From positions 24,056,001 through 24,120,000 of the forward strand of contig NC_092352.1 of the NCBI RefSeq assembly GCF_963676685.1: 64,000 bases of DNA, in the 5' to 3' direction. Source of the stretch: Mytilus edulis (lineage: Eukaryota). This document shows, in pieces, positions 24,750 to 55,712 of the stretch; position 1 is the first letter of the stretch; each line of letters starts with the position of its first letter. The notes beneath the pieces were generated by a model. It was not told the DNA's origin. It was given only the letters and a program-made list of their open reading frames with translations, and did not search any database. Position numbers and translations under genes: made by a program.

Positions 24750-25054
24750 TGTTCATTGTTACAATGTATATGTATGTTCAAGAAAGATAAAAGGCCTATT
24801 TTGAAGTGTCTATTCATTGTTACAATGTACATTTATGTTTAAGAAAGGTAAAAGGGCTATTTTGAAGTGTCTATTCATTGTTACAATGTACATTTATGTT
24901 TAAGAAAGGTAAAAGGGCTATTTTGAAGTGTCTATTCATTGTTACAATGTACATTTATGTTTAAGAAAGGTAAAATGGCTATTTTGAAGTGTCTATTCAT
25001 TGTTACAATGTACATTTATGTTTAAGAAAGGTAAAAGGGCTATTTTGAAGTGTC
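24750..25054. repeat. 61-bp minisatellite, 5 copies
   Basis: Unit TATTCATTGTTACAATGTACATTTATGTTTAAGAAAGGTAAAAGGGCTATTTTGAAGTGTC. Confidence 0.95.
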
Positions 25055-25561
25055 TTAAAACAGGTTTTCGGTCATTATGAGCTCTAGTAATATTTGTTAA
25101 AAGTCTATCCGTTTAACAAAGATGTCAGTTTGTATACGTGTTTTATACTTGTTAGCTTGCAGATGTATTATTAACCACACAACACTCTTTTAGAATTTGT
25201 AGAATCATTAATATAATGTTGTTTATATATGCGATGTTAAGCAGCAGTTTATGGACAGTACACGTTCTGTCGTGATATAGTACCGACAACAAGCTATTAC
25301 ATGCCCCGCTGCTAAAGTTGCCGGTTTTTCAAAAAGTGGCTTAATCGTATATCGGAACGGCGCAATAATGCAAACAGATGACATGCAAGATAGTCGAAGA
25401 GATTTACAACAGACATTCGCAGCTGTGTGTCATCATACTGCATTGCCAGTTACAGATGTATATAAGGCCCTGACATTATAAAGTGTAAAACATGCAAACG
25501 ATAAATCTATGGACCTAAACACAAAACACATATATCTTATACATGTAGATTTCTACCTGTA

Positions 25562-34606: not shown

Positions 34607-35870
34607 TTATACCCCACGCAACGAAGTTGCGGAGGGTATAGTGTTTTTGACCCGTCCGTCCGTCAGTCCTGTTTCTTGTCATCGCAACTCCTCTCAAACC
34701 ACACAACAGAATTTCACGAAACCTTTTCAGATAATAAGGACATACTATGTAGTTGTGCATATCGACGGGAAATTGCGATTCAATTTTTTTTCTAGGAGTT
34801 ACGCCCCTTTGAACTTATTTACTTTAATGTATTACTGCAACAGTTTGTCATCGCAACTCCTCTCAAACCACACAACAGAATTTCACGAAACCTTTTCAGA
34901 TAATAAGGACATACTATGTAGTTGTGCATATCGACGGGAAATTGCGATTCAATTTTTTTTCTAGGAGTTATGCCCCTTTGAACTTATTTACTTTAATGTA
35001 CTACTGCAACAGTTTGTCATCGCAACTCCTCTCAAACCACACAACAGAATTTCATGAAACTTTGTAGATAATAAGGACATACTATGTAGATGTGCATATC
35101 AACAGGAAATTACGGTTCAATTTTTTTCTAGGAGTTACGCCCCTTTGAACTTATTTACTTTAATGTATTACTGCAACAGTTTGTCATCGCAACTCCTCTC
35201 AAACCACACAACAGAATTTCACGAAACCTTTTCAGATAATAAGGACATACTATGTAGTTGTGCATATCGACGGGAAATTGCGATACAATTTTTTTTCTAG
35301 GAGTTACGCCCCTTTGAACTTATTTACTTTAATGTATTACTGCAACAGTTTGTCATCGCAACTCCTCTCAAACCACACAACAGAATTTCACGAAACCTTT
35401 TCAGATAATAAGGACATACTATGTAGTTGTGCATATCGACGGGAAATTGCGATTCAATTTTTTTTCTAGGAGTTATGCCCCTTTGAACTTATTTACTTTA
35501 ATGTACTACTGCAACAGTTTGTCATCGCAACTCCTCTCAAACCACACAACAGAATTTCATGAAACTTTGTAGATAATAAGGACATACTATGTAGATGTGC
35601 ATATCAACAGGAAATTACGGTTCAATTTTTTTCTAGGAGTTATGCCCCTTTGAACTTATTTGCTTCAATGTACTTCTGCAACAGTTTGTCATCTCAACTC
35701 CTATGAAAACACACAACAGAATTTCATGAAATTTTGTAGATAATAAGGACATACTATGTATATTGACAGGAAATTATTATTCAATATTTTTTCTTATACT
35801 TATTTAATTTCTCCAATGACAATGTGGGGACGTGGGGTATGTGAGCGTGCTCACTAAGGTTCTTTAATTT
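34604..35870 (+). mobile_element. Helentron-associated non-autonomous element (HINE/DINE-like) with internal satellite
   Basis: Subterminal IR ATACCCCACG (34609-18) / CGTGGGGTAT (35831-40), 5' hairpin CGCAACGAAGTTGCG, (GTCC)n tract, 3' hairpin GTGAGCGTGCTCAC, T-rich ends. Confidence 0.75.
34677..35790. repeat. ~168-bp tandem repeat, ~6.6 copies
   Basis: Unit begins TTGTCATCGCAACTCCTCTCAAACCACACAACAGAATTTC. Confidence 0.95.
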
Positions 35871-39916: not shown

Positions 39917-42775
39917 ACTTTTTATTGTTAACTGTACAAAACGACGAGTCCTATTTGTTGTAATCCTAGCCAGGTTTCTGATGTCCCGGCTAGCGGGACA
40001 GGAGTATACACAGGATAACGGCGCTCCCGCAAAGAAAGTCTGAGATCCTGCATTTAAAAGTCGCAAGTCGTCCTATCGACGGGTCTAGCGGTCGGTATAA
40101 TCTGTTCAGCTGGTTTGCCTAGGTGTCAAGATCAGTGGATAAATATATGAAATCATCTTCGGCAAATTTGCTTCTTGTATTGTTCTCTGTTTTTGTTACA
40201 TGGCTAGCATAGGAATGGTCTGCTTCAAAAGATGCTCTATGTGTTGTTTCTTTTTTGTTTCAATTGAACTCTATCTTGAATAAATTTGGATATTTTTTTA
40301 ACATAGTTTGATGGAGAGAATCGCCCATTGTGATTTCTAATGGATGGCATAATTTTTTTATAGAAGACGTTTGGGTTTTGCTCGTTGTTGAAGGCCGTAC
40401 GGTGACCTATAGTTGTTAATTTCTGTGTCATGTTGGTCTCATTGGCAATCATACCACATCTCCTTTTTATTAATGACCTCAATTCTAATTAATATATTGT
40501 CTTGTATGTGATATAATTTTAGTTCATTTATAGGTTTTTGATTGTGACGTCCATTTTCTCTGAATTAGAACACAAATTTTAATTAGGGCCTATGTTGTGT
40601 CTTCTTGCTGTGCTGAAGACCTATCGGTGGCCTTCAGCTGTGTTCTGCTCTTTTATCAGGTTGTTGTCTCTTTGACATATTCCCCATTTCCATTCTCTAT
40701 TTTATTGCATACTAATTTTTTTAACTATTGATGTTAAAATTAGAAGATAAACCAATCATATTTTAAAGAAAAATCACAAAGAAGCACAATTAAAAGTAGA
40801 TGATAATTGACTGTATTGTGAAACTATAATAATATAATTACCATATGCCTTGGTGTGCAATTCAATTATTTGATCCTCATAATCACTCAATATATTCAGA
40901 CAATCCTCATTTTTTATTCATCTTTGAGCATAATTTTTAATGTGAACCTGTTGTTTCTTTGACATACTGTCATTGTAACGTAAATAAAGAAAACATATAA
41001 GCCTTATATTCAGAGTAGGAATAAAGGATTAAATGAGTGAAGGAGAAGGCATTGTTTCTAATACATTTCATTTGTAATGAGATTGATGATTTATCCTATG
41101 AAAGTAAATGAGCCAGAGATTCAGTTATTATTATTATATTCAAGTTATCTGATATTTGCTCTGGATTTTTTGCAAAATCTGCGTACACAAATTAAAACAG
41201 ACAATATGTCTAGTTTTTTTAATATTATTTGTAGTGTAAATATTGACATCTATTTGTTTTAGGTAAACTATCAAATGTAAAGCATTATTTAAGCAAAATG
41301 TGTAACAAAATTATGAAACTTTTTTCCAAAGTTCAGAGTTAATACTGGTACCGATGTGCTATGTGTTGTGGTAAAAAAAATTCAGCCAATTAAATTCATC
41401 AGTCACAAAGAAGACGACCCAATAGCACTTTCTTTACGTCATTCATGTTAACTGTTTCACTGTCATTCAAAACAAACATGTCTATGTCTTCTAGTCTTAC
41501 ATTTTCACAGTCTTGCAATACAGATGAAAGAACCCATTTTTCTTCGTTTAATGCACATTTGATATAATGTTTAATGCATCTCGGGTAAGTAAAGCGTCAT
41601 TCTCTTGAAATTCCCACTTGTTCAGTCTTCTTTTTTTCAGTTTTATTATTTCTTCCTCTAGTATGAATTTTTCTTTCTGTACAGTCAACACGTCATACTG
41701 CTTCCGTGATGGCATTTCTTGAAGTCCTCAATGGTTTCTTCTCGGGTTAAGGAGTACTAGTAAATATTGGCAAATAAATTACAGTTGCGGTTAAACATGT
41801 ATCAGAAATTGCAATGGCGGCAGTACATGTATCGGCATGGTGCTTTCAAACTCTGCATCATATAGCGTATATCTTCCACATTTCTTACGACTGGGATAAA
41901 AAAAAAATCTACATTTTGTCGACATTTATATTATATATCTGAATAGACATTGAGAGCATATATATATATTGTGACAAGTAACCCCCAGGGCATATATTTT
42001 TTTATTTTTATATTATGCTGTAAATATGTTATTTCCTTGTTATAGATAAGATATATGTTTTGAATTGTTAAGAATGTTATTTATTCTATATGAGTCCTAA
42101 GTTCCTATGATAATAGAACTAAAATATTTGTTTATTGTTCATTGAAGAGATATTTTCATAAAATAATCCAAGTCAGAATTGTTTTCATTTTTGCATAAAT
42201 TGTAAACATCAAGATTTTTGTTAAAATGACTTTCCATATATTTTTATGTTTACCTAGTCTTGGTAAATGCTTTAATAATTGTGTTGTGTATTGACTTGTA
42301 TCAACAAATGGATAGAACATGAGAAATATTGTGATATTTAGATTTTTGAGACTTGTTGTTATTTTGAGAAAGTTCCCGTACTTTTTCATCTGTAACTTTT
42401 TCGGGATCGACCCCACTTTAGACATACTTTCTGTCAATTTTGGACAATGACAGCCAAACTTACTTATATACACTCTTTTCGAAAGTCGAATTGAGTTTGA
42501 GAATTTACTTTTCCCCACTGAAGGTTATGCATTTTGCTTAAACTTGTCGATCTTCGTTTCTGTTACAGACAGCATGTATCGCTATCCGCCATTACTTCAG
42601 ATGAACGGCTAGCGATTTCATAGGTTGATTAAAAGAATAAAGTATTTTACCTTAATTTTTGTAGAAATTGTTATAGAAATGTTTTATTTTACGATTAATG
42701 TTAGAAAATGTAAAAGTTTATATTTTAATAACTTTGTATTCTTTGTCGATTCAACTTGTTAAAGAATGGAGCTTT

Positions 42776-42930
42776 TTGATTGGCTATTGGTTACTGTGCA
42801 CTGTGCAAGATGGGGCACTTAAGGGTATCGTGCATGCCCCTGTGCGGTACATTTGCACTGTCGTGCAGTGGCGGGTATTATATAACCTTTCGAAAACGCT
42901 GCACTGACGTCACTTTCACGCCATTTTATT
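42776..42930 (+). promoter_or_regulatory. putative LTR core promoter
   Basis: Two ATTGG (CCAAT) boxes ~42779-42790, TATATAA 42879-85, CRE TGACGTCA 42905-12 overlapping Inr-like TCACTTT (A at 42912), YY1-like CGCCATTTT 42919-27; same in the 3' LTR. Confidence 0.55.
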
Positions 42931-43303
42931 AGGGATTGAACCGCTGCCAAAATTTTATTAGAAAGTAAGGCCAATTTTTACGTTTAGAAACTTATTTATT
43001 TAACTAAATTTTCTTATTGGAAAAACGTAATTTTACAGAGATTTTAATGATAATTTCTAGAAGTTTATTTTCATTTCAAAAGTAACTTTTAAAGGCTGTT
43101 TTACGAATTTATGGTTCAAAATTTCATTGTTTTGGAATTGTAAAGTTTTGTTTAAGTACATTTTACCGGAAAGTTAGATTTTTCTATTTAAGAGTCCAAA
43201 GCCAATCAAACTATTTTTGCGTTTAAATTATAGACTGTGTTATAGGATTTTAAAGGTATATCTGAGAGTTCTTTGCTACACTTTTATTGTCCTCTATTTT
43301 ACA

Positions 43304-44342
43304 AGACATACGCTACTAGTAAAGTCTCTAGTACACTTGTCTACATTTACGCAAATTAAATATATTAGATAAGGTAATAGGGACACAAAACATACGCTAC
43401 TAGTAAAGTCTCTAGTACACTTGTTTTGTTTAAATAACTATAAATAGGGAGATTAGTTAAAAGACATACTCTACTAGTAAAGTCTCTAGTATTTTGTCGT
43501 GATTAAAATAATTGGAATAAGGATAAAGGGCTTACGCTACTAGTAAAGTTTCTAGTACATTTGTCCTGTTTAAATAACAGTTACTGTATAAATAGGGAGA
43601 TTAGTCAAAAGACATACACTACTAGTAAAGACTCTAGTATATTTGTCCTGTTAAAGTAATTAAGATAAGGATAAGGGTCTCAGGACTACACTGCTAGTAA
43701 AGTCTCTAGCAATTGTCTTGAAGTAAATAAGAAAACCAAGTTACAGATAAACACTATTTTGAGTAAACTTTGAGATAAATTAGATGGCATATGCTGCTAG
43801 TAAAGTCTCTAGCACAATTGTCATAATAGCTTAAATTTGTATAAACTGAGATTAATTGATTTTCTCTTCATAAATCTATTTGTACATTCATTTACAAGTA
43901 AATACTAAAACACCTTTAGATCTAAGGCATACGCTCTAGCACAGGGTCAGCTAGCACACTTGCCTCTAAATTTTGTACACCTGATAACGCTCTAGCACAG
44001 GGTCAGCTAGCACACTTTCTTGTGTACTAAAGTTATAACGTTTATAATAAAGAATTTAATACATTAAAAACCTTTTAGAACTTAGGCATACGCTCTAGCA
44101 CAGGGTCAGCTAGCACACTTGCCTCTAAATTTTGTACACTTGATAACGCTCTAGCACAGGGTCAGCTAGCACACTTTCTTGTGTATTAAACTGTTGAATA
44201 TTCTTATTGTCTATGTAACGTTACCAATTTAAACTTAGAAGTTAGGTACTCAGTTAAACCTTTAAGTGATATATATATACCTCAGATATACCTTGTTAAT
44301 ATTAGACATACGCTACTAGTAAAGTCTCTAGTACACTTGTCT
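43304..44342 (+). repeat. array of 12 conserved stem-loops in the 5' LTR
   Basis: Eight copies of type TACGCTACTAGTAAAGTCTCTAGTACACT and four of type ACGCTCTAGCACAGGGTCAGCTAGCACACT, each closed by its own complementary outer stem. Confidence 0.9.
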
Positions 44343-44742
44343 CTTTGTTATATGTAATATTTGCTACTGGTCTCATTGTTATATACCAGTGTCAGTGTAT
44401 CTGAAGAAAACCCTAGTCAAATAATAAACACACTATTGTTATTCATATTTTTATTGGTTAACGGTAGTCCTTTAATAGTCCATTATATATATTGAAAGTG
44501 ACCATAACATCAGGCCAATAATAAAGTATTGAACTTCAAAACGTATTTCCCTTTACTTTAGATTTTAACAAATCTAGCGAGACATAGAGTTTGCTTTTCC
44601 AGTTATTATATCTGGTTTATTGTGTCACCTCAGTTGGTTCTGATTTTGAGATTTAGTCTTGGGTCAAGGTCTTGTGTACGTTCATTGTTTGGGAGTTTGC
44701 TGACAACCTTATTTGCCATATAGCTCTTGCGCGCTACATTTT

Positions 44743-44760
44743 TGGCATCCTCGGTGGGAT
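44743..44760 (+). promoter_or_regulatory. primer binding site
   Basis: TGGCATCCTCGGTGGGAT, 4 nt after the LTR; complement of a tRNA 3' end with discriminator G; isoacceptor not identified (Arg or Asn possible). Confidence 0.85.
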
Positions 44761-44804
44761 CTGCTTGTCATTTGCGGATCCAGTGATACGAATATCTTTT
44801 AATT

Positions 44805-46487
44805 ATGGTAAAAAGGAAGAATCCAGCACTACCCAGACCAGGTGAAAGGAGCGAAATAGACACAGAGACGGATGCCATCGAGACTGACACAGATTGTAAT
44901 ATGTACACAGACTTTTCAGAGCCAGAAACTGACGACAGAGATGTTACAGTAATACCAAAAGTAAGCGTGATAAACTTGCCCAGCACTAGCTCTATACCAA
45001 TTAGTTCAGATATCAGACCAAGAAGAAGTTTGAGACTGTCCAGGAAGAGAGAAGTCCACACAGAGAGTGAGAGAGAAGAACCTGAAATGCAAAGTCATGG
45101 TGACACAGCTGGTGTTTATGGTATAATTAAAGGGGCATTTCAAGAAATGACCGGTCAATTGGTGACAGCAATCCAATCAGCATTCAAGGGTTTCCACAGT
45201 GATACCAAGTTAACTGAAAAGGGGGAGACTAGAAAAGCAAAGAAAAGACCAACAAAGTCCAAAAGTGACCCAGGCAGATTACATCCTGTGATGTCCAACT
45301 TTGCCATCCAGTCAGACAGTGATGATAGTTCAGATGAAAGCAGCTATGAAGATTCTATAGAAGGCAGTATAGATACATGTTACATAACAGAACCCAAAAG
45401 AAAACCTGCTATGTCTAGTAATGTTAAATTACCTGCTTATATAGGCAAAGAAAAATGGGAGGTGTACTACAATAGATTTGAAGCTGTTTCTAAACTGAGT
45501 CATTGGGACGACAACACCAAATTAGCAGAGCTACTTCCTCGTCTACAAGGAGAAGCAGGTGACTTTGCCTTTGATCAACTTGCCCAAAGAACATTATCAA
45601 GCTATACTAGATTAACCAAAGAGATACACAACAGATTTGGAACTTTCGAGACCAAGAAAAACTACAAAACATTGTTTAATAGACGAAACCAGAAATCTGA
45701 CGAGAAACCAGAGGCTTATGCAGCAGAGCTGAAACGGATTTATGACAAAGCTTACAAAAACAGAGATATGAAAATTAGGCAAGAGGACCTGTTACAAAGA
45801 TTTCTGATGGGACTTTCTGACCATGACAGTAGGGTCCATGTGGAGCTATGTAAAGAACCAAACACCATTGAAGAAGCAGTGCAAGAAGTTATCACTTTTA
45901 CTGAAGCTATAAGTCCACAAGAAGACCATACAGTAAGCAAATTTAAGAAGCAAGTTAGGCAGGTTAAGGGAAAACAGAAAACTTACAGTAAAAAGGGCAA
46001 AGACAAAGGAAAGAAACAAGATGACCAATCACTTAGTGAAGACAGTGACCAACCTAACCCTCCTAAACCAGGATTCACCACTGTAGATATTGAACAAATT
46101 AAAGATATAATAAAGCGAGTAAACCAGGAGCAAAGGAGAGATGAAAACATACAGAAACCAAATGGGTACCAGGGGAACTCCCATTTTAGCTCTTCACCAA
46201 ATTATGTACCAGATTCTAACAGTTACAATAGAAGAGAAAACATAAATACTGCAAATCCACCAAGTCAACAGGGGTATGGTAGTCAAGATACAAAGACAAA
46301 TTTTGCTTGTTATTATTGTGGCCAGCCAGGAAATTTTGCCAGGAACTGCTTTAGTAACCCAAAAAGACAACCCGACTTTAAAAGAAGCCAACCATGGAAT
46401 GAAGGAAGAACAAGGGAGGTTACTCCACCAACTCTAGATTTTAGGTCAGGGAAAACTGAGTCTTTCCCTGAAATAGCTTTAAACTAG
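44805..46487 (+). CDS. gag: Gag (560 aa)
   Basis: KLPAYIG..WEVYYNRFE, LQGEA, RNQKSDEKPEAYAAEL capsid-like region; zinc knuckle CYYCGQPGNFARNC (His replaced by Asn). Confidence 0.9.
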   Translation: MVKRKNPALPRPGERSEIDTETDAIETDTDCNMYTDFSEPETDDRDVTVIPKVSVINLPSTSSIPISSDIRPRRSLRLSRKREVHTESEREEPEMQSHGDTAGVYGIIKGAFQEMTGQLVTAIQSAFKGFHSDTKLTEKGETRKAKKRPTKSKSDPGRLHPVMSNFAIQSDSDDSSDESSYEDSIEGSIDTCYITEPKRKPAMSSNVKLPAYIGKEKWEVYYNRFEAVSKLSHWDDNTKLAELLPRLQGEAGDFAFDQLAQRTLSSYTRLTKEIHNRFGTFETKKNYKTLFNRRNQKSDEKPEAYAAELKRIYDKAYKNRDMKIRQEDLLQRFLMGLSDHDSRVHVELCKEPNTIEEAVQEVITFTEAISPQEDHTVSKFKKQVRQVKGKQKTYSKKGKDKGKKQDDQSLSEDSDQPNPPKPGFTTVDIEQIKDIIKRVNQEQRRDENIQKPNGYQGNSHFSSSPNYVPDSNSYNRRENINTANPPSQQGYGSQDTKTNFACYYCGQPGNFARNCFSNPKRQPDFKRSQPWNEGRTREVTPPTLDFRSGKTESFPEIALN

Positions 46488-46542
46488 AGAGGGTCAACTC
46501 CAATGACCAGGAGCTGACCCAGGGTTTTCAGGAGAAAGGTCA
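46478..46542 (+). promoter_or_regulatory. -1 programmed ribosomal frameshift signal
   Basis: T TTA AAC slippery heptamer directly before the gag stop, 6-nt spacer, stem GGGTCA-A-CTCC / GGAG-C-TGACCC; loop TGACC complementary to GGTCA at 46538-42; -1 frame is open into pol. Confidence 0.85.
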
Positions 46543-49500
46543 AATTTTGAGAGAGGAGAATAAAGAAGTGTTACTTAGCAGCAGTAGTTCAGTAGAGGTT
46601 TTTAGTAGAAATAAAAGTAGTTTTAATGAGGTTATTGATTTCTCACAGGGTGAGAATGAAAATTTATGTTCAAGCTGTGACGACAGCAGTGAACAAAACT
46701 TGATTAGTCCACAATTTATTGGACGTCAAGTACTCCGCAGCGAAGGAGTTTATATTGAGGGTCATGTGCAAGGCACTGAAGTGAATTTTACAGTTGATAC
46801 AGGGGCCTCTCGAACAGTGTTATCGAGAAGGGCTTTTCAACAAATACCATTTGCTAAAAGACCCCTCTTAAAGAAGTCAAATATGCTGGCTAGTGCCGAT
46901 GGCAAACCACTACATGAGTTAGGGAAAGCCATTTTTGACATCAAATTAGGAGATTTACCTTTTGAGATTGAAGTTGTAGTTGCAGAGATTGAGGACGAAG
47001 CCTTGTTGGGTCTTGATGTACTTATGAAGGCAGATTGTGGACCAGCTAATTTAAGATTAAGCGACGGGATTATGCTGCTAGGTGATACTTCCATTCCCTG
47101 TCAACAAATTGGCTTACCTGAAAGAGTAAGAAAAATTAGAGTAGCTGATAATTTTTCTATACCGCCCAGAAGTGAAATGCTTATAGATGTTTTTATAGAT
47201 AGATATGAAGATGACCAAATTTTAGGATCCTTTGATTTTGTTTTAGACCCCACTGAAGATATATTACAGAGATACCCCGTTGTTATGGCCCCTACTATAG
47301 TTAACATTGAAAAAGATGTAACCAGTTTAGTTAGAATATTAAAACCTTTTGATACAGAGTTTACTTTATATCAAGATACAGTTATTGGAGAAGCTGAAAG
47401 CTTGATAAAGGAACCAGAAATTTTAGTTTCATGCGAAGATAAAGCTGAAGTCAGTAATTTTTCAGTAGTTAGACGTATTAAATTAGGTGACCATAAACCA
47501 GTTCAGTGGGAAACCAACACGGGAATTATTAGGAACATTTCAAAGAAAGGGACTGCAGATGGTGGGAAAAGTGGTATTGTTCCTGATCACTTACAGGATT
47601 TATTTTTAGAATCTACTAAAGAACGTTCAGCAGAAGAATGTGATATTATTTGTAATTTATTAAATAAATTTTCAAATGCTTTTTCTAAAAATGACATGGA
47701 CCTTGGTTTAACTAATTTAACAGAACACTGTATAGAGACAGGGGATGCCAGACCAGTGAAGCAGCCACCATGAAGAGTACCTGTGGCCTATGCTAATGAG
47801 GAAAAGAAGTTGGTAGACCAGATGTTACAACAAGGGATTATCCAGAAATCGCACAGTCCATGGGCATCTCCACTGGTTTTGGTTGTGAAGAAGTCTGGTA
47901 AGCTGAGACCATGCTGCGATTTTCGCAGGCTAAACAAGCTAAGTCGGCTCGATAGTTATCCTATTCCACGCATACAGGACTGCCTGGATACTTTGAGTGG
48001 TTCTACCATTTTCAGTACTTTTGATTTGATCAGTGGTTTCAATCAAATCCCTGTAAAGAAAGAAGACATCCCTAAGACTTCATTCGTGACTAAGTATGGT
48101 CTATTTGAATACAAAACTCTCCCTTTTGGTCTTTGTAATGGGCCGTCCACCTGTCAAAGACTAATGGAATTAGTTTTAAACGGTTTACAGTGGCAAACTT
48201 GCCTAATTTACCTGGACGACATTATAGTCTTCTCCCCTAGTTTTGACCAGCATATTGAAAGACTAGAAGAGGTGCTCCTTAGAATTTTGGAGGCAGGGTT
48301 AAAGCTGAAACCAGAAAAATGCACTATGTTAAAGTCAGAAGTTGCATTTCTTGGTCATGTTGTATAATGGAAAAGGGGTTCAATTAAATCCAGATAACAT
48401 TGCCAAAATTTTAGCTTGGTCAGTGCCAACAAATGTAACTGAAGTCCGTCAATTAGTTGGGATGGGTAGCTATTATCGTCGTTTTATTAAAGATTTTTCT
48501 TCTCTTGTGAAGCCTCTAACAGAGCTCACTAAGAAGTCAAATGCATTTATCTGGTCGAATGAGTGCCAAAAATCTTTTGAACAACTTAAAGAAGTATTTA
48601 TGAGTCCAGAAATAATGGGATATCCTTTAGACAAGGGAGATTTTATATTAGATACGGATGCAAGTGATTTTGCCATTGGAGCAGTTTTGAGCCAAATTCA
48701 AGATGGAAGACCCAGAGTGATCGCTTATGGCAGTCGTACCTTAAATAAAGCTGAGTGCAATTATTGCGTGTCAGGACTGACCACCAGGCCTTGATATGGT
48801 TATTTAGCCTTAAAGAGCCTAAGGGCAGGATTGCCCGGTGGATTGAAATACTATCCGCTTTTGATTTTACTGTAGAATATAGACCAGGCCCCAAACATGG
48901 AAATGCAGATGCTATGTCACGATGCATAAACCCCCGTGAGTGTGATTGTCCCCAAACAGACCATATGGAATATTTGAAATGTGGTCCTTGTGCGAAATGC
49001 ACAAGAAGAGCTCGTGACATGGTGACTTCCATGATTTCCCCCCCCCCCCCTTTTATAGAAGAAAAGAAAGTTTTTAAAAGTCTTAATGTAGTAAAGACAA
49101 GGAAACAGACAGAGGAAGCTAATACTTGGACCATTTGGAAAACAGGACATACTATACCAGAGCTAAAGAAATTACAAGAGGAAGATGAAGCCATTGGCCA
49201 TATTTTTAAATGGAAAACAGATGGGAAGAGACCGCCATGGAGAGATGTGGAAAGTTTGAGTCCAGCTACCCGACATTATTGGCACCTTTGGGAATCCTTA
49301 TTTTTTAAAGAGAATTTACTCTTTAAAGAATTCTCTAAGCGAGATGAAACTGCTGACCAAATACAGTTTTTAACCCCACAGAAATTGAAACCTGAAATTT
49401 TAGCTCAAATGCATAATTCCATTACATCTGGGCATTTGGGAAGGAAAAAGACAAAGGCAAAGCTTTCCCAGAGATTTTATTGGTATGAGATGAGAGAGGA

Positions 49501-50494
49501 CATCACCATATGGTTAGCAAAGTGTGATATTTGCCAGGCAAATAAATCTCCAGTAAAAGGATACAGGGCCCCTTTAGGAAGTATGCCTACTGGTGGACCA
49601 TGGGATAGATTGGCTACTGATATTTTAGGCCCTCTTCCTGTCACACCAAGACATAATAAATATGTTTTAACGGTAACAGACCATTTTACAAAGTGGGTCG
49701 AGGTTTTTCCTGTACAGGACTCCACTGCTGTTACCTGTGCTTACTTGATTTTAAATGATGTTATATGTCGTTATGGTTGTCCACTTGCCTTACACTCTGA
49801 TCAAGGTCGCAACTATGAAAGTGATATTTTTCAAGAGCTGTGTTCTATGTTAGACATTAGAAAAACAAGAACCAGTGTAAGAAATCCAAAGGGTAATGGT
49901 CAAACATAGCGATTTAATCGTAGTTTACTGTCTATGATTAAATCTTATTTACAAGGTGAACAGACAGACTGGGATTTAAATCTTGGTTGTCTTGCAGGTG
50001 CTTACCGGTCTACTCCGAATGCATCTACAAGTCTTACTCCTAACTTGTTGATGTTAGGAAGGGAAATCAGGTTTCCAGTTGAGGTGATACAAGCAAAAGT
50101 TTCGGTTCAAGGTGAAGTCCAAGTAAATCCAGGCGATTTTGTCTGTGAATTAAGAGAGAGGTTGCAAAAGGCTCATAGTGTTGCCAGAAAACATTTATCA
50201 GCAAATGCTAAAAGGCGTAAAGATTACTATGACCAGAAAGTAAACTTTGTCATTTATAATATTTTTGATAAGGTTTGGTACTTAAACAAGACAAGGAAGG
50301 AAGGCATAAGTCCAAAACTTCAACCCTTATACTTGGGACCTTGCCTTATTACCAAAAAGTTGAATGAAATTAATTTTGAAATACAACTAGATGCTAAGGG
50401 AACCAGAAAGGTTATTAATCATAACAAGTTGAAACCTTACATTGGTGAAAACATACCCAAGTGGATGAAAATAGTTGAAAAACAAATTTCTTAA
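46478..50494 (+). pseudogene. pol: Pol (PR-RT-RNase H-IN), disrupted
   Basis: VDTGAS, YLDD, LDTDAS, HHCC, DILGP/SDQG; TGA at 47771-73, frameshift ~48362, deletion plus frameshift in RNase H ~48770, TAG at 49907-09 replacing the integrase catalytic Glu. Confidence 0.95.
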
Positions 50495-50883
50495 CTGTTG
50501 TTAATGGCCGGTTAAACTCCATTATCCTTTGTCTGTACTATACTTGAGTGATGAACTGAAAATTTAAAAATAAATTTTTGTAAATATCAGTAGAGATATC
50601 AAATATGAATTCATTATTTTTATGAATTCTTCCAAAGAAATCTAACTTGACAAGTTAGGGATCAAATTTATATTTTGCTTACCAATATGAAAATTGTTAA
50701 GTATTTAATTTTATTTTAAATAATATAAACTTGGTGTATGAAATTTTTATATACCGTTTAATAAGTATGTAATTATCTCCCCTGTATAAAGCTAAAATAA
50801 ACTTCAGATACACTGCCAGGTTATTTCTGGGACCAGACCTATTAAACTGGACAAGAGTTTTAAAGGTCCTATACTCTTTTTAG

Positions 50884-52140
50884 ATGAGTTTCCAGTATGA
50901 TGCCGCCAAGGCCAAGAGAAGGGCAACCATCTGTCTTCTCTGTACTGATTCTCCTGCTTATATGGGCCAGAAGCATAGAGTTGTAACACACATTTTGGTG
51001 AACCATGTGTCAGTTTCGAGAACACATTACTTCTGCACACTTTGCCAGTTTAGATGCACCAACATGGATACTCTGAAACAGCATGTGAACTTTCATAGGC
51101 CTCATCAGACATTGAAGGATAGCTTTTCAGCCTTGCCAGACAAGGACTACTTTCTTATCTCAGATTCACCTTACTTCCCGCAGGCAGGAAGAGATTTTAA
51201 ACTGTTGCCTAGGCAGAGACCCGGTTTGGGCACTACAATAGACCCAGTAGAATTGAGTTCAGGAAGCAGTACTGGTGGAGTATCGCCTCCCACTGTACCA
51301 ACATGTGTGATACCAGAACGACCAGTAGGAAGGGCCACTGTTTACATACCATCTTTTATGCCACCACCAGAACCAGTCCAGTTTGTAAATTACACTTCTC
51401 CATCTGATATTTCCTCATCTCTACCTCCACCTCCTTTCGACTTCAACCCAGGACACTGGTCATCACCCTCCATCCAAGCTTCACCACCCTTGCCAACAGA
51501 AACCAACATTGTTCAGGAAATAATACAGGAGAACCAGGCTGCCCTTGGGATGGACCTCCAGTACACAAACACCATAGATTTTTTTGATTTACCAGAATCG
51601 CCATTGGTATCCACACCAGAACTGGCCTCTCCAGTGAGGAACATCATTATGAGAGACAGAGAAATAGGGGAAGAGGAAAATTTGTTGCCCCAGCTGTTAG
51701 GTGATAGCAACCCACCTGTATCACCCTCAACAAACCATCCAGCCACGGAATGGAATGGTGTTCCTCTTAGTCAAGGTCCAGAACTTCATTCATCCTCATC
51801 CTCCTCTTCATCTTCATCATCATCTTCATCTGATTGCTCTGCTCTGGGAGAGGTGAAACAGTCAATATCCACTTTACTAGAGAACACTGCGGCAGAGCAT
51901 TCAAAGACCAGAGAAAGTATTGGCCAGTTGGGCACGGTTATTGAAAGTCTGGTGTCGCAGGTACAGGGTTTGAGATCAGTGGTAAGGGAGCAAGGGGATG
52001 AAATCAGGAGATTAAAGAACGATCGACCGAACACAACTACCATCGTAAACAGATCCAGAATTCAGCAAAGGCGCCGGACGCCGACACCCAGCAGACAGAG
52101 ATTTGGCCATCCACTTCCACCTGCAAAAAGAAGAAGATAA
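50884..52140 (+). CDS. ORF3: double C2H2 zinc-finger protein with Pro/Ser-rich region, coiled coil and basic/NLS tail (418 aa)
   Basis: CLLC-x15-H-x4-H and CTLC-x12-H-x3-H; heptad-like IGQLGTVIESLVSQVQGLRSVVREQGDEIRRL; RRRTPTPSRQR and PPAKRRR; no signal peptide or TM segment seen. Confidence 0.85.
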   Translation: MSFQYDAAKAKRRATICLLCTDSPAYMGQKHRVVTHILVNHVSVSRTHYFCTLCQFRCTNMDTLKQHVNFHRPHQTLKDSFSALPDKDYFLISDSPYFPQAGRDFKLLPRQRPGLGTTIDPVELSSGSSTGGVSPPTVPTCVIPERPVGRATVYIPSFMPPPEPVQFVNYTSPSDISSSLPPPPFDFNPGHWSSPSIQASPPLPTETNIVQEIIQENQAALGMDLQYTNTIDFFDLPESPLVSTPELASPVRNIIMRDREIGEEENLLPQLLGDSNPPVSPSTNHPATEWNGVPLSQGPELHSSSSSSSSSSSSSSDCSALGEVKQSISTLLENTAAEHSKTRESIGQLGTVIESLVSQVQGLRSVVREQGDEIRRLKNDRPNTTTIVNRSRIQQRRRTPTPSRQRFGHPLPPAKRRR

Positions 52141-52925
52141 ACTTGTTATATTTAGGGTATTATAAATTTTAGGTAAATATTTAGGGTAAAATGGTAGAAA
52201 ATCATGAAATCAATTTGAAATTATGTAAGGGAGAGTAAATTAAAAACATTTTTAAATGTTATCCAGCTAAATAATGGTTTTATTCAAGAGATTTTATAAG
52301 TATTGAAAAATTTTCAGAAATCAAGTTTATAATTGTTTAATTCAAATTGTTACACTTTTAAAAATAAAACATACCTTTCTGTTCAATCATTTTCTTTTAA
52401 ATTCATTAGATCAATAGCATTTCCTGTCATACTGAAAAATATAATTTTAGATTTAGCTATGTGTTACTTATAGCATGGTAAAGGGTCGATCATTTATTGT
52501 TGTGTATTTTAAACTGTATGTATTAAAGTAAAGTAATATGATATAGTTAATATTGTATTGGATAATGGTTGTGGATGTACCTAGTTAAATGGTGATACAT
52601 TATTAGAAAAGAAATTTTAGAAATTATTTTTACTGTTAAATTACTATAGTAAAGTAAAGAAATTATTACTTAACTCATGAGTTTCTTAAAGATACGTACC
52701 TTCACTTTGGAAAACGTCTCTGCTTTAATTTATTTATGACTAAACACTAGTCATAATTTGTTGAAGAAATATTTTGGTGACAATAAATATAAATTTTTGA
52801 TATTTACAAGATAAATATTTGGATGTAATAAATTTTGAAAAATGTGGAAAGCTTTTCAAAGGTGACACGATACAGGGAGAAGATGTTTTCTAGTCCGTCC
52901 AATTTGTGGGGACACAAATTTTAAC

Positions 52926-52937
52926 AGGGGGGTAAAA
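52926..52937 (+). promoter_or_regulatory. polypurine tract
   Basis: AGGGGGGTAAAA abutting the 3' LTR; preceded by hairpin AATTTGTG-GGGA-CACAAATT (52901-20). Confidence 0.8.
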
Positions 52938-55712
52938 TGTGACAAGTAACCCCCAGGGCATATATTTTTTTATTTTTATATTATGCTGTAAATATGTTAT
53001 TTCCTTGTTATAGATAAGATATATGTTTTGAATTGTTAATAATGTTATTTATTCTATATGAGTGCCAAGTTTCTATGATAATAGAACTAAAATATTTGTT
53101 TATTGTTCATTGAAGAGATATTTTCATAAAATAATCCAAGTCAGGAATGTTTTCATTTTTGCATAAATTGTAAACATCAAGATTTTTGTTAAAATGACTT
53201 TCCATATATTTTTATGTTTACCTAGTCATGGTAAATGCTTTAATAATTGTGTTGTGTATTGACTTGTATCAACAAATGGATAGAACATGAGAAATATTGT
53301 GATATTTAGATTTTTGAGACTTGTTGTTATTTTGAGAAAGTTCCCGTACTTTTTCATCTGTAACTTTTTCGGGACCGACCCCACTTTAGACATACTTTCT
53401 GTCAATTTTGGACAATGACAGCCAAACTTACTTATATACACTCTTTTCTAAAGTCGAATTGAATTTGAGAATTTACTTTTCCCCACTGAAGGTTATGCAT
53501 TTTGCTTAAACTTGTCGATCTTCGTTTCTGTTACAGACAGCATGTATCGCTATCCGCCATTACTTCAGATGAACGGCTAGCGATTTCATTGGTTGATTAA
53601 AAGAATAAAGTATTTTACCTTAATTTTTGTAGAAATTGTTATAGAAATGTTTTATTTTACGATTAATGTTAGAAAATGTAAAAGTTTATATTTTAATAAC
53701 TTTGTATTCTTTGTCGATTCAACTTGTTAAAGAATGGAGCTTTTTGATTGGCTATTGGTTACTGTGCACTGTGCAAGATGGGGCACTTAAGGGTATCGTG
53801 CATGCCCCTGTGCGGTACATTTGCACTGTCGTGCAGTGGCGGGTATTATATAACCTTTAGAAAACGCTGCACTGACGTCACTTTCACGCCATTTTATTAG
53901 GGATTGAACCGCTGCCAAAATTTTATTAGAAACTAAGGCCACTTTTTACGTTTAGAAACTTATTTATTTAACTAAATTTTCTTATTGGAAAAACGTAATT
54001 TTACAGAGATTTTAATGATAATTTCTAGAAGTTTATTTTCATTTCAAAAGTAACTTTTAAAGGCTGTTTTACGAATTTATGGTTCAAAATTTCATTGTTT
54101 TGGAATTGTAAAGTTTTGTTTAAGTACATTTTACCGGAAAGTTAGATTTTTCTATTTAAGAGTCCAAAGCCAATCAAACTATTTTTGCGTTTAAATTATA
54201 GACTGTGTTATAGGATTTTAAAGGTATATCTGAGAGTTCTTTGTTACACTTTTATTGTCCTCTATTTTACAAGACATACGCTACTAGTAAAGTCTCTAGT
54301 ACACTTGTCTACATTTACGCAAATTAAATATATTAGATAAGGTAATAGGGACACAAAACATACGCTACTAGTAAAGTCTCTAGTACACTTGTTTTGTTTA
54401 AATAACTATAAATAGGGAGATTAGTTAAAAGACATACTCTACTAGTAAAGTCTCTAGTATTTTGTCGTGATTAAAATAATTGGAATAAGGATAAAGGGCT
54501 TACGCTACTAGTAAAGTTTCTAGTACATTTGTCCTGTTTAAATAACAGTTACTGTATAAATAGGGAGATTAGTCAAAAGACATACACTACTAGTAAAGTC
54601 TCTAGTATATTTGTCCTGTTAAAGTAATTAAGATAAGGATAAGGGTCTCAGGACTACACTGCTAGTAAAGTCTCTAGCAATTGTCTTGAAGTAAATAAGA
54701 AAACCAAGTAACAGATAAACACTATTTTGAGTAAACTTTCAGATAAATTAGATGGCATATGCTGCTAGTAAAGTCTCTAGCACAATTGTCATAATAGCTT
54801 AAATTTGTATAAACTGAGATTAATTGATTTTCTCTTCATAAATCTATTTGTACATTCATTTACAAGTAAATACTAAAAAAAACCTTTAGATCTAAGGCAT
54901 ACGCTCTAGCACAGGGTCAGCTAGCACACTTGCCTCTAAATTTTGTACACCTGATAACGCTCTAGCACAGGGTCAGCTAGCACACTTTCTTGTGTACTAA
55001 AGTTATAACGTTTATAATAAAGAATTTAATACATTAAAAACCTTTTAGAACTTAGGCATACGCTCTAGCACAGGGTCAGCTAGCACACTTGCCTCTAAAT
55101 TTTGTACACTTGATAACGCTCTAGCACAGGGTCAGCTAGCACACTTTCTTGTGTATTAAACTGTTGAATATTCTTATTGTCTATGTAACGTTACCAATTT
55201 AAACTCAGAAGTTAGGTACTCAGTTAAACCTTTAAGTGATATATATATATATACCTCAGATATACCTTGTTAATATTAGACATACGCTACTAGTAAAGTC
55301 TCTAGTACACTTGTCTCTTTGTTATATGTAATATTTGCTACTGGTCTCATTGTTATATACCAGTGTCAGTGTATCTGAAGAAAACCCTAGTCAAATAATA
55401 AACACACTATTGTTATTCATATTTTTATTGGTTAACTGTAGTCCTTTAATAGTCCATTATATATATTGAAAGTGACCATAACATCAGGCCAATAATAAAG
55501 TATTGAACTTGAAAACGTATTTCCCTTTACTTTAGATTTTAACAAATCTAGCGAGACATAGAGTTTGCTTTTCCAGTCATTATATCTGGTTTATTGTGTC
55601 ACCTCAGTTGGTTCTGATTTTGAGATTTAGTCTTGGGTCAAGGTCTTGTGTACGTTCATTGTTTGGGAGTTTGCTGACAACCTTATTTGCCATATAGCTC
55701 TTGCGCGCTACA
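52938..55712 (+). repeat. 3' LTR (2775 bp)
   Basis: Direct repeat of 41970-44738. Confidence 0.97.
54272..55316 (+). repeat. array of 12 conserved stem-loops in the 3' LTR
   Basis: Copy of 43304-44342. Confidence 0.9.

Follow-up and report, generated by a model that had tools for sequence, protein, structure and literature searches.

Organization of the retrotransposon

The analyzed window is a 64,000-nucleotide stretch of Mytilus edulis DNA, and all positions refer to it. A full-length Ty3/Gypsy LTR retrotransposon with TG...CA ends was located at 41970–55712. The element and all of its features described here are on the plus strand, and its family is referred to as family A. The paired TG..CA LTRs, the primer-binding site (PBS), the polypurine tract and the domain order PR-RT-RH-INT are those of Ty3/Gypsy (Metaviridae-like) elements. 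The element is inserted in a TA run, with ATATAT at both flanks, and the TSD length cannot be fixed. The 5' LTR (41970–44738, 2769 bp) and the 3' LTR (52938–55712, 2775 bp) are 98.96% identical, with 29 differing columns. The 5' LTR carries an array of 12 hairpin units at 43304–44342 and the 3' LTR a second copy of it at 54272–55316.

The PBS at 44743–44760 is complementary to tRNA-Arg(TCT), and the polypurine tract lies at 52926–52937. A GGATCC-N-GTGATACG-like motif, a candidate priming or packaging element, was found 3' of the PBS at 44770–44790 and also in families B, D and E. The gag gene (44805–46487) encodes one CCHC-type knuckle near its end, the His of which is replaced by N in this copy; it shares 41–50% identity with the gag of families B, C and E and has no Pfam match. 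The pol gene (46472–50494), encoding protease, RT, RNase H and integrase, is divided here into five frames by stops and frameshifts. It is followed by an extra ORF of 418 aa at 50884–52140.

Two other tandem arrays of the window, at 34676–35760 (169-bp x6.4) and 24752–25055 (61-bp x5), are unrelated to the element. The genes of tRNA-Arg(TCT) and tRNA-Lys(TTT) form a long tandem array in the same genome (G000:C4:50.72-50.78 Mb, L219) with a period of ~585/629 bp.

Predicted promoter, R region and splice sites

The predicted promoter (42778–42916) comprises a double CCAAT (42778), a TATA (42876) and a CRE-like TGACGTCA that overlaps the Inr TCACTTT, placing the putative transcription start at about 42912. 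The order and spacing of TATA and Inr are alike in families A, B and C. The predicted splice donor (42960–42970, GT at 42965-66) is situated ~55 nt 3' of this start; its AAA/GTAAG is identically placed in families A, B and C, and the 3' LTR of the window copy has G>C there. The predicted poly(A) signal AATAAA (44520–44545) is 219 nt before the LTR end, and no other AATAAA can be aligned between the LTRs of families A and B. In all six families examined, an AATAAA was found 158–225 nt before the LTR end. As the TATA/Inr and the donor precede the array and the poly(A) signal succeeds it, the array is placed in the predicted R of ~1.63 kb, with its first unit ~390 nt past the predicted start.

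The predicted splice acceptor, a pyrimidine tract with AG at 50870–50883, directly abuts the ATG of the extra ORF. The same arrangement was found in most families, and the extra ORF is therefore predicted to be expressed from a spliced message. None of the listed sequencing runs is on record as RNA; the array was partly covered by contigs of 4 of the 24, the RNA nature of which was guessed, and neither strand nor ends were readable there. Among the joints listed for the contigs of the four guessed-RNA runs, the donor–acceptor joint was absent. A contig of the guessed-RNA run X7 fuses 63 foreign letters to the acceptor AG (50882), as expected if a host exon were joined to the extra ORF by splicing; no source of these letters was found in the genome. 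A search of 59 loci and of the genome gave no match to a 30-nt loose end at the acceptor.

Architecture of the hairpin array

The units are situated at 43304-342, 43385-429, 43463-498, 43527-567, 43611-647, 43680-721, 43784-824, 43925-965, 43975-44027, 44084-124, 44134-186 and 44304-342. All 12 had been reported in the initial annotation, and each was present and folded on the plus strand into the outer and inner stems described there. Units 1–7 (43304–43824) are of type A, consisting of an outer stem, a C-R-Y bulge with one R-Y pair, a 6-bp stem and an 8-nt loop that starts with UAAAG. Units 8–11 (43925–44186) are of type B, with a 5-bp stem and a 9-nt loop, and were weakly matched by the covariance model (CM) with 17.8–18.1 bits. 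Unit 12 (44304–44342) is identical to unit 1. Thus, a 6-bp inner stem with an 8-nt loop is present in 8 of the 12 units, and the other 4 have the 5-bp stem and a different loop. Units 8-9 and 10-11 represent one 126-nt duplication with 94% identity; due to this duplication and the identity of units 1 and 12, the number of independent outer stems is ~9, not 12.

The outer stems change in sequence yet stay paired, as had been claimed, and every quoted pairing was found in the sequence (e.g. AGACA/TGTCT, TCAGGAC/GTCTTGA, GTACAC/GTGTAC). The reported inner-stem change from TACTAG/CTAGTA to TGCTAG/CTAGCA is likewise real: it is present in units 6 and 7 and in 11 insertions. The conservation of the apical loop held in part. 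The UAAAG start is constant, whereas UAAAGUCU is present in only 8 of the 12 units (6 exact in the 5' LTR), and the last three bases of the type-A loop vary even from insertion to insertion.

The folding of single units was only modest, with z values from -1.1 to -3.5 on the plus and from -0.2 to -2.7 on the minus strand. The number of type-A units per LTR ranged from 4 to 16 across 15 loci, and chimeric units occurred. Such an elastic unit number resembles the behaviour of repeated binding sites. A 24-nt degenerate core pattern had 80 matches in the genome, compared with 6 for the reversed control, and 78 of the 80 were in LTRs of this element group. A search of Rfam, which had been proposed as a check, gave no family match at the gathering score in the element or in the loci of five relatives; only chance-level rows (E 0.48–4.4) were obtained, none of them on the array.

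Conservation of the pairing

The pairing of cognate and swapped outer arms was compared in 16 unit types out of three families. Cognate arms paired at -5.35 kcal/mol and swapped arms at -3.30 kcal/mol on average (permutation p=3e-5). The own partner was the best one in just 5 of the 16 rows, since many units share ancestry. The same comparison for the hairpins of families D and E is circular, as these hairpins were chosen by eye, and it was excluded as evidence.

Covariation over the aligned units and their homologs, another check proposed in the initial annotation, was present. The score was 0.377, which was reached by none of 500 shuffles, and the slid controls resulted in 0.06–0.15. It was computed from 14 MAFFT-aligned units and 31 distinct model-aligned hits; relatedness was ignored and the second alignment was fitted to the model. 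Double changes were detected at 4–5 of the 7 inner pairs, and the pair beside the bulge is G-C, A-U or G-U among units.

Variants were counted in the window and in the 17 of 20 fetched loci that were alignable to the LTR, and those found in at least two insertions were considered as shared. The inner stem and loop had 1 shared and 38 private variants, compared with 71:126 in the spacers (p=5e-6) and 58:201 in U3 (p=0.002). No shared variant was found at 96 inner-stem sites and one at 64 loop sites, while private variants (19 and 19) occurred at normal rates. In the outer stems and the internal loop, shared variants were not significantly depleted (16:43 vs 71:126, p=0.22). According to a unit-wise recount, 117 of 128 cores were fully paired, two stem variants each recurred in two insertions, and the variation was mostly restricted to the last three loop bases. 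Purifying selection acts on the inner stem and loop. Homogenisation among units could also contribute to the sparsity of core variants.

The strand of the structure

The array had been described as a selected plus-strand RNA structure that behaves like a protein-binding site. The selected structure is supported by the above results and a protein-binding site is likely, whereas base pairing does not establish the plus strand. The earlier argument that G-U pairs favour sense RNA over a DNA cruciform turned out to be underpowered, as the stems have 7 G.U and 1–3 A.C oppositions on the plus strand (binomial p 0.07–0.34) and an unbiased LTR-wide scan resulted in 3 of each. The minus strand folded equally well or better in 8 of the 12 units, and the swapped-arm test was as strong on it (p=9e-5). 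On the minus strand, the conserved A.C/C.A oppositions within the internal loop become tandem G.U pairs. Moreover, RNA and single-stranded DNA cannot be told apart by G.U pairs. Only the context speaks for plus-strand RNA: the array lies in the predicted R and has one orientation in every family.

Hairpin arrays in related families

Families A–F have the tRNA-Arg PBS in common, with LTRs of 1.8–2.8 kb. Families B and C share 80% and 74% of the RT and 39% of the extra ORF sequence with family A. Of the 2769 nt of the family-A LTR, only 99 can be aligned to the LTR of family B and none to that of family C; families B and C retain 2–4 bulged hairpin units with double changes in the corresponding LTR zone. 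At E<0.001, the CM built from 14 units matched 34 sites in 442 kb, every one of them in an LTR of family A, B or C, the training units matching by construction.

Families D, E and F bear hairpin arrays of their own. Family D has 7 clustered hairpins in 250 nt with AAGG(U/A) loops and varying stems. Its LTR contains 11 AAGG[AT] sites, of which the 7 clustered ones close stems of 4–12 WC pairs and the 4 others stems of 2. The R-like region of family E contains ~7 hairpins with AAAGG/GAGGU/GAGU in their loops, which resemble those of family D and include a UAAAGGUCU loop, and one loop of family E nearly equals that of family A. A purine-rich AAG(G) loop recurs across families A–E. The array of family F consists of GGUGC-N4-GCACC hairpins, with 59 pattern matches and 0 in the control, and its Gag is very different as well. 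The coding capacity of families E and F is restricted to gag and protease, without RT, integrase or the finger ORF; both are non-autonomous and recently mobile. An autonomous helper for family F was not found among 9 gag matches. Family E was located at G000:C2:85.08 Mb and C4:45.60 Mb (L233-L236), with LTRs of 1895–1925 bp, 99.9–100% identical, and a tRNA-Arg PBS. Family F was located at G000:C1:37.48 Mb (L237, L238) and in ~20 other places, with an LTR of 1773 bp (99.9%).

Nine LTRs of more distant families, 8 of them with a finger ORF, contained no CM hits. In a test for repeated loops, only one of these (L059) exceeded its shuffles and another (L041) equalled them; the test is weak because it missed 3 of the 6 LTRs of families A–D known to bear arrays. 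The region 2661–3646 of L059 has two GCUGCUG/CAGUGGC stems with AAGAAG loops, unlike the family-A sequence, and the region 3436–5455 of L041 has 21 hairpins compared with 9.9 in shuffles. In the RT tree of 21 rows, families A–D fell within one supported group of 8 together with two further families, the order inside being unresolved. Six short loci were recovered from metagenomes; one of them (L202) has an LTR-like end, and none contained a CM hit. A pattern scan of IMG/VR gave 121 stretches that were chance matches only, with 0 hits in the 80 searched with the CM; a locus with 3 matches (L085) was rejected as an array, being a coding repeat. All the array evidence comes from one genome.

The extra zinc-finger ORF

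The extra ORF, which was missing from the initial annotation, as were the relatives, is a candidate ligand of the hairpin array and the likely partner of the binding site. It encodes two C2H2 fingers, a Pro/Ser middle, a coiled coil and an Arg/Lys-rich tail (12 of the last 40 residues), and bears an acidic-hydrophobic motif. A search of representative proteins resulted in 241 matches, with named relatives from Mytilus and Mactra. The C2H2 sets of both fingers were invariant in 82 aligned sequences, and the basic tail was found in 34 of 50 full-length relatives. The coiled-coil-type matches at residues 300–380 were sub-threshold. Many Gypsy families spread over the RT tree, including those with LTRs of 560–990 bp, have such a two-finger ORF behind an acceptor, and it occurs in other bivalves as well.

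The structure was predicted with a pLDDT of 87. In the VIA-align comparison, finger 2, with the spacing C-x2-C-x12-H-x6-H, most resembled RNA-binding fingers of the matrin/U1C/JAZ type (7 of the top 12 rows, Z 3.0–4.0) and superposed on the SF3A2, TUT1, JAZ and U11 fingers with an rmsd of 1.6–3.7 A over 37–40 residues. Pfam zf-met was matched in 6 of 30 members at sub-threshold level (best E 0.005, below the curated cut-off). The two-finger domain as a whole had no significant match to solved structures. The best Foldseek rows, all non-significant, were DNA-binding C2H2 proteins, and Foldseek, a PDB sequence search and the ESM Atlas named no specific relative. As judged by these models, finger 2 appears weakly matrin/JAZ-like.

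Discussion

The best explanation of the array, which we put forward with a confidence somewhat short of even, is an RNA response element circuit of the Rex/RexRE type, where the hairpins in the sense RNA would be bound by the zinc-finger protein of the element. The stem-loops in the predicted R would fold in the sense RNA, and a spliced message would give the zinc-finger protein. The loading of this protein on the repeated hairpins would shift the output to full-length genomic RNA, either through export or by suppressing splicing or the 5' poly(A) site, in the manner of Rex at the HTLV RexRE. The outer stems would need only to pair in order to present the site, the identity of which would be carried by the C-R-Y bulge, the stem top and the UAAAG loop start. 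Many units together with the coiled coil may permit cooperative loading. As the arrays of families E and F accompany only gag and protease, the finger protein must in such a circuit be supplied in trans, and the gag-only derivatives would use it in this way. Further points speak against a Rex-like circuit: both strands pair equally well, shared variants are not significantly depleted in the outer stems and internal loop, the 3' array would be present in spliced and unspliced RNA alike, and the modelled fold matches are weak (best Z 4.0), the best Foldseek rows being DNA-binding proteins.

The distant finger-ORF families mostly lack arrays and the arrays of families E and F lack the ORF, and therefore binding by Gag, by a host protein or at the DNA level has to be considered as well. 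It is unlikely, though worth serious attention, that Gag, rather than the extra ORF, reads the hairpins as sense-RNA signals for packaging, dimerization or localisation. In families E and F, gag, protease and the array have been retained without the finger ORF, and both families moved recently (LTR pairs 99.9–100% identical), and in family F a very different Gag is paired with a different hairpin; purine-rich loops also suit the binding of zinc knuckles. On the other hand, the 3' copy puts the array in spliced messages too, which is poor for selective packaging. Packaging signals usually sit just 3' of the PBS, where families A, B, D and E have the separate conserved motif. A role of the signal as DNA is about equally doubtful, either as inverted half-sites for a dimeric finger protein (an activator or a VANC-like anti-silencer) or as minus-strand strong-stop hairpins aiding the transfer over the long R. 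The C2H2 fingers, coiled coil, acidic-hydrophobic motif and basic tail would also suit a transcription factor, and the minus strand folds equally well, with the tandem G.T in the internal loop. According to the available text of PMC5735166, the VANC targets are tandem repeats that differ among related transposons. However, binding to a duplex needs neither the complementary changes of the outer arms (p=3e-5) nor the T-A/C-G swaps of the stem, and strand transfer requires R-to-R identity alone, not loops common to units and families.

The recruitment of a host RNA-binding protein with a CTE-like export, stability or anti-piRNA function appears rather improbable. It would be in line with the persistence of arrays without the finger ORF and with the purine-rich AAG(G) loop of families A–E, whereas three hairpin types within one host genome fit better with an element-specific partner. 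That the array is a neutral by-product, in which template switching multiplied a palindrome and homogenisation kept its copies alike, is very improbable and for the most part already refuted. The unit number of 4–16 and the chimeric units agree with such an origin; against it, the units persist with double changes in LTRs no longer alignable, and the cores are constant while the diverging outer arms remain paired. We can scarcely expect that the units individually act as small self-cleaving ribozymes or as precursors of small RNAs, even if ribozymes are known in retrozyme LTRs and mollusc repeats. Inspection of the units revealed neither a hammerhead nor a twister core, nor any complementarity of loops with bulges or with other loops that survives the variation; twelve cleavages in R would destroy the genome, and 40–50 nt is short for a miRNA precursor. 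Besides, a small-RNA-derived LTR of the Helenus/Ajax type, as described in the available text of PMC10886601, was rejected because the LTR has no tRNA/5S match.

Rex domains are laid out as basic and oligomerisation segments, and the extra ORF likewise holds an Arg-rich and an oligomerisation segment, as in Rex/Rev-type regulators, which bind their RNA directly and export it unspliced through CRM1. The RexRE is an LTR stem-loop bound by a spliced viral protein according to the available text of PMC12789967. The Rex-like circuit proposed here resembles HTLV/BLV Rex-RexRE, as well as MMTV Rem-RmRE, HERV-K Rec and HIV Rev-RRE in that it would combine structured RNA in the LTR or genome with a small regulator from a spliced, here predicted, message. 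It differs from Rex-RexRE in belonging to an env-less Ty3/Gypsy element and in having many separate 40–50-nt hairpins instead of one large fold; C2H2 fingers form the N-terminal part of the candidate protein, for which homology to Rex/Rev was not detected. In common with lentiviral TAR-Tat, there is a bulged hairpin with a conserved loop in the, here predicted, R. TAR is single and situated at the extreme 5' end, whereas 4–16 or more units, 12 in the window, start here ~390 nt past the predicted start, and a TAR-type element was thus rejected. Also, the predicted R of 1.6 kb exceeds the 15–250 nt given for retroviruses in the available text of PMC12789967. The VANC of Arabidopsis VANDAL elements, as described in PMC5735166, is similarly an extra protein encoded by a transposon with family-specific repeated non-coding motifs; it binds short DNA motifs and belongs to a DNA transposon, and here pairing is conserved and not sequence alone. 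With matrin/U1C/JAZ fingers, finger 2 shares the spacing and the superposition, at a Z of only 3–4. The mollusc Gypsy clades (C-clade, MolGy1-16) in the available text of PMC6238403 are of the same superfamily and host group, and neither an extra ORF nor a zinc finger nor any structure in the LTR is mentioned in that text. No description of the array or the extra ORF was found in the openly accessible papers searched; the supplements of PMC6238403 may list these families.

The hairpin array is real and selected, and apparently new to the literature. The extra zinc-finger accessory gene is widespread and apparently undescribed in the papers searched. The finger protein and the three natural hairpin types form a small, directly testable candidate protein-RNA pair for specificity studies, and should Gag or a host protein prove to be the ligand, the array is still a new structured RNA motif. 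The array also bears on the question of how transcripts are kept from ending in the 5' LTR when the poly(A) signal lies within a very long R. It is possible, though rather more doubtful than probable, that an env-less Gypsy lineage of bivalves independently evolved the circuit of complex retroviruses, with a spliced zinc-finger regulator, family-specific hairpin arrays in a 1.6-kb R, and gag-only parasites hijacking the regulator in trans. Switches composed of a protein and an RNA element, such as Tat/TAR, Rev/RRE and Rex/RexRE, are the mark of complex retroviruses; if the proposed circuit is true, such control would have arisen in Metaviridae too, in a plain retrotransposon.
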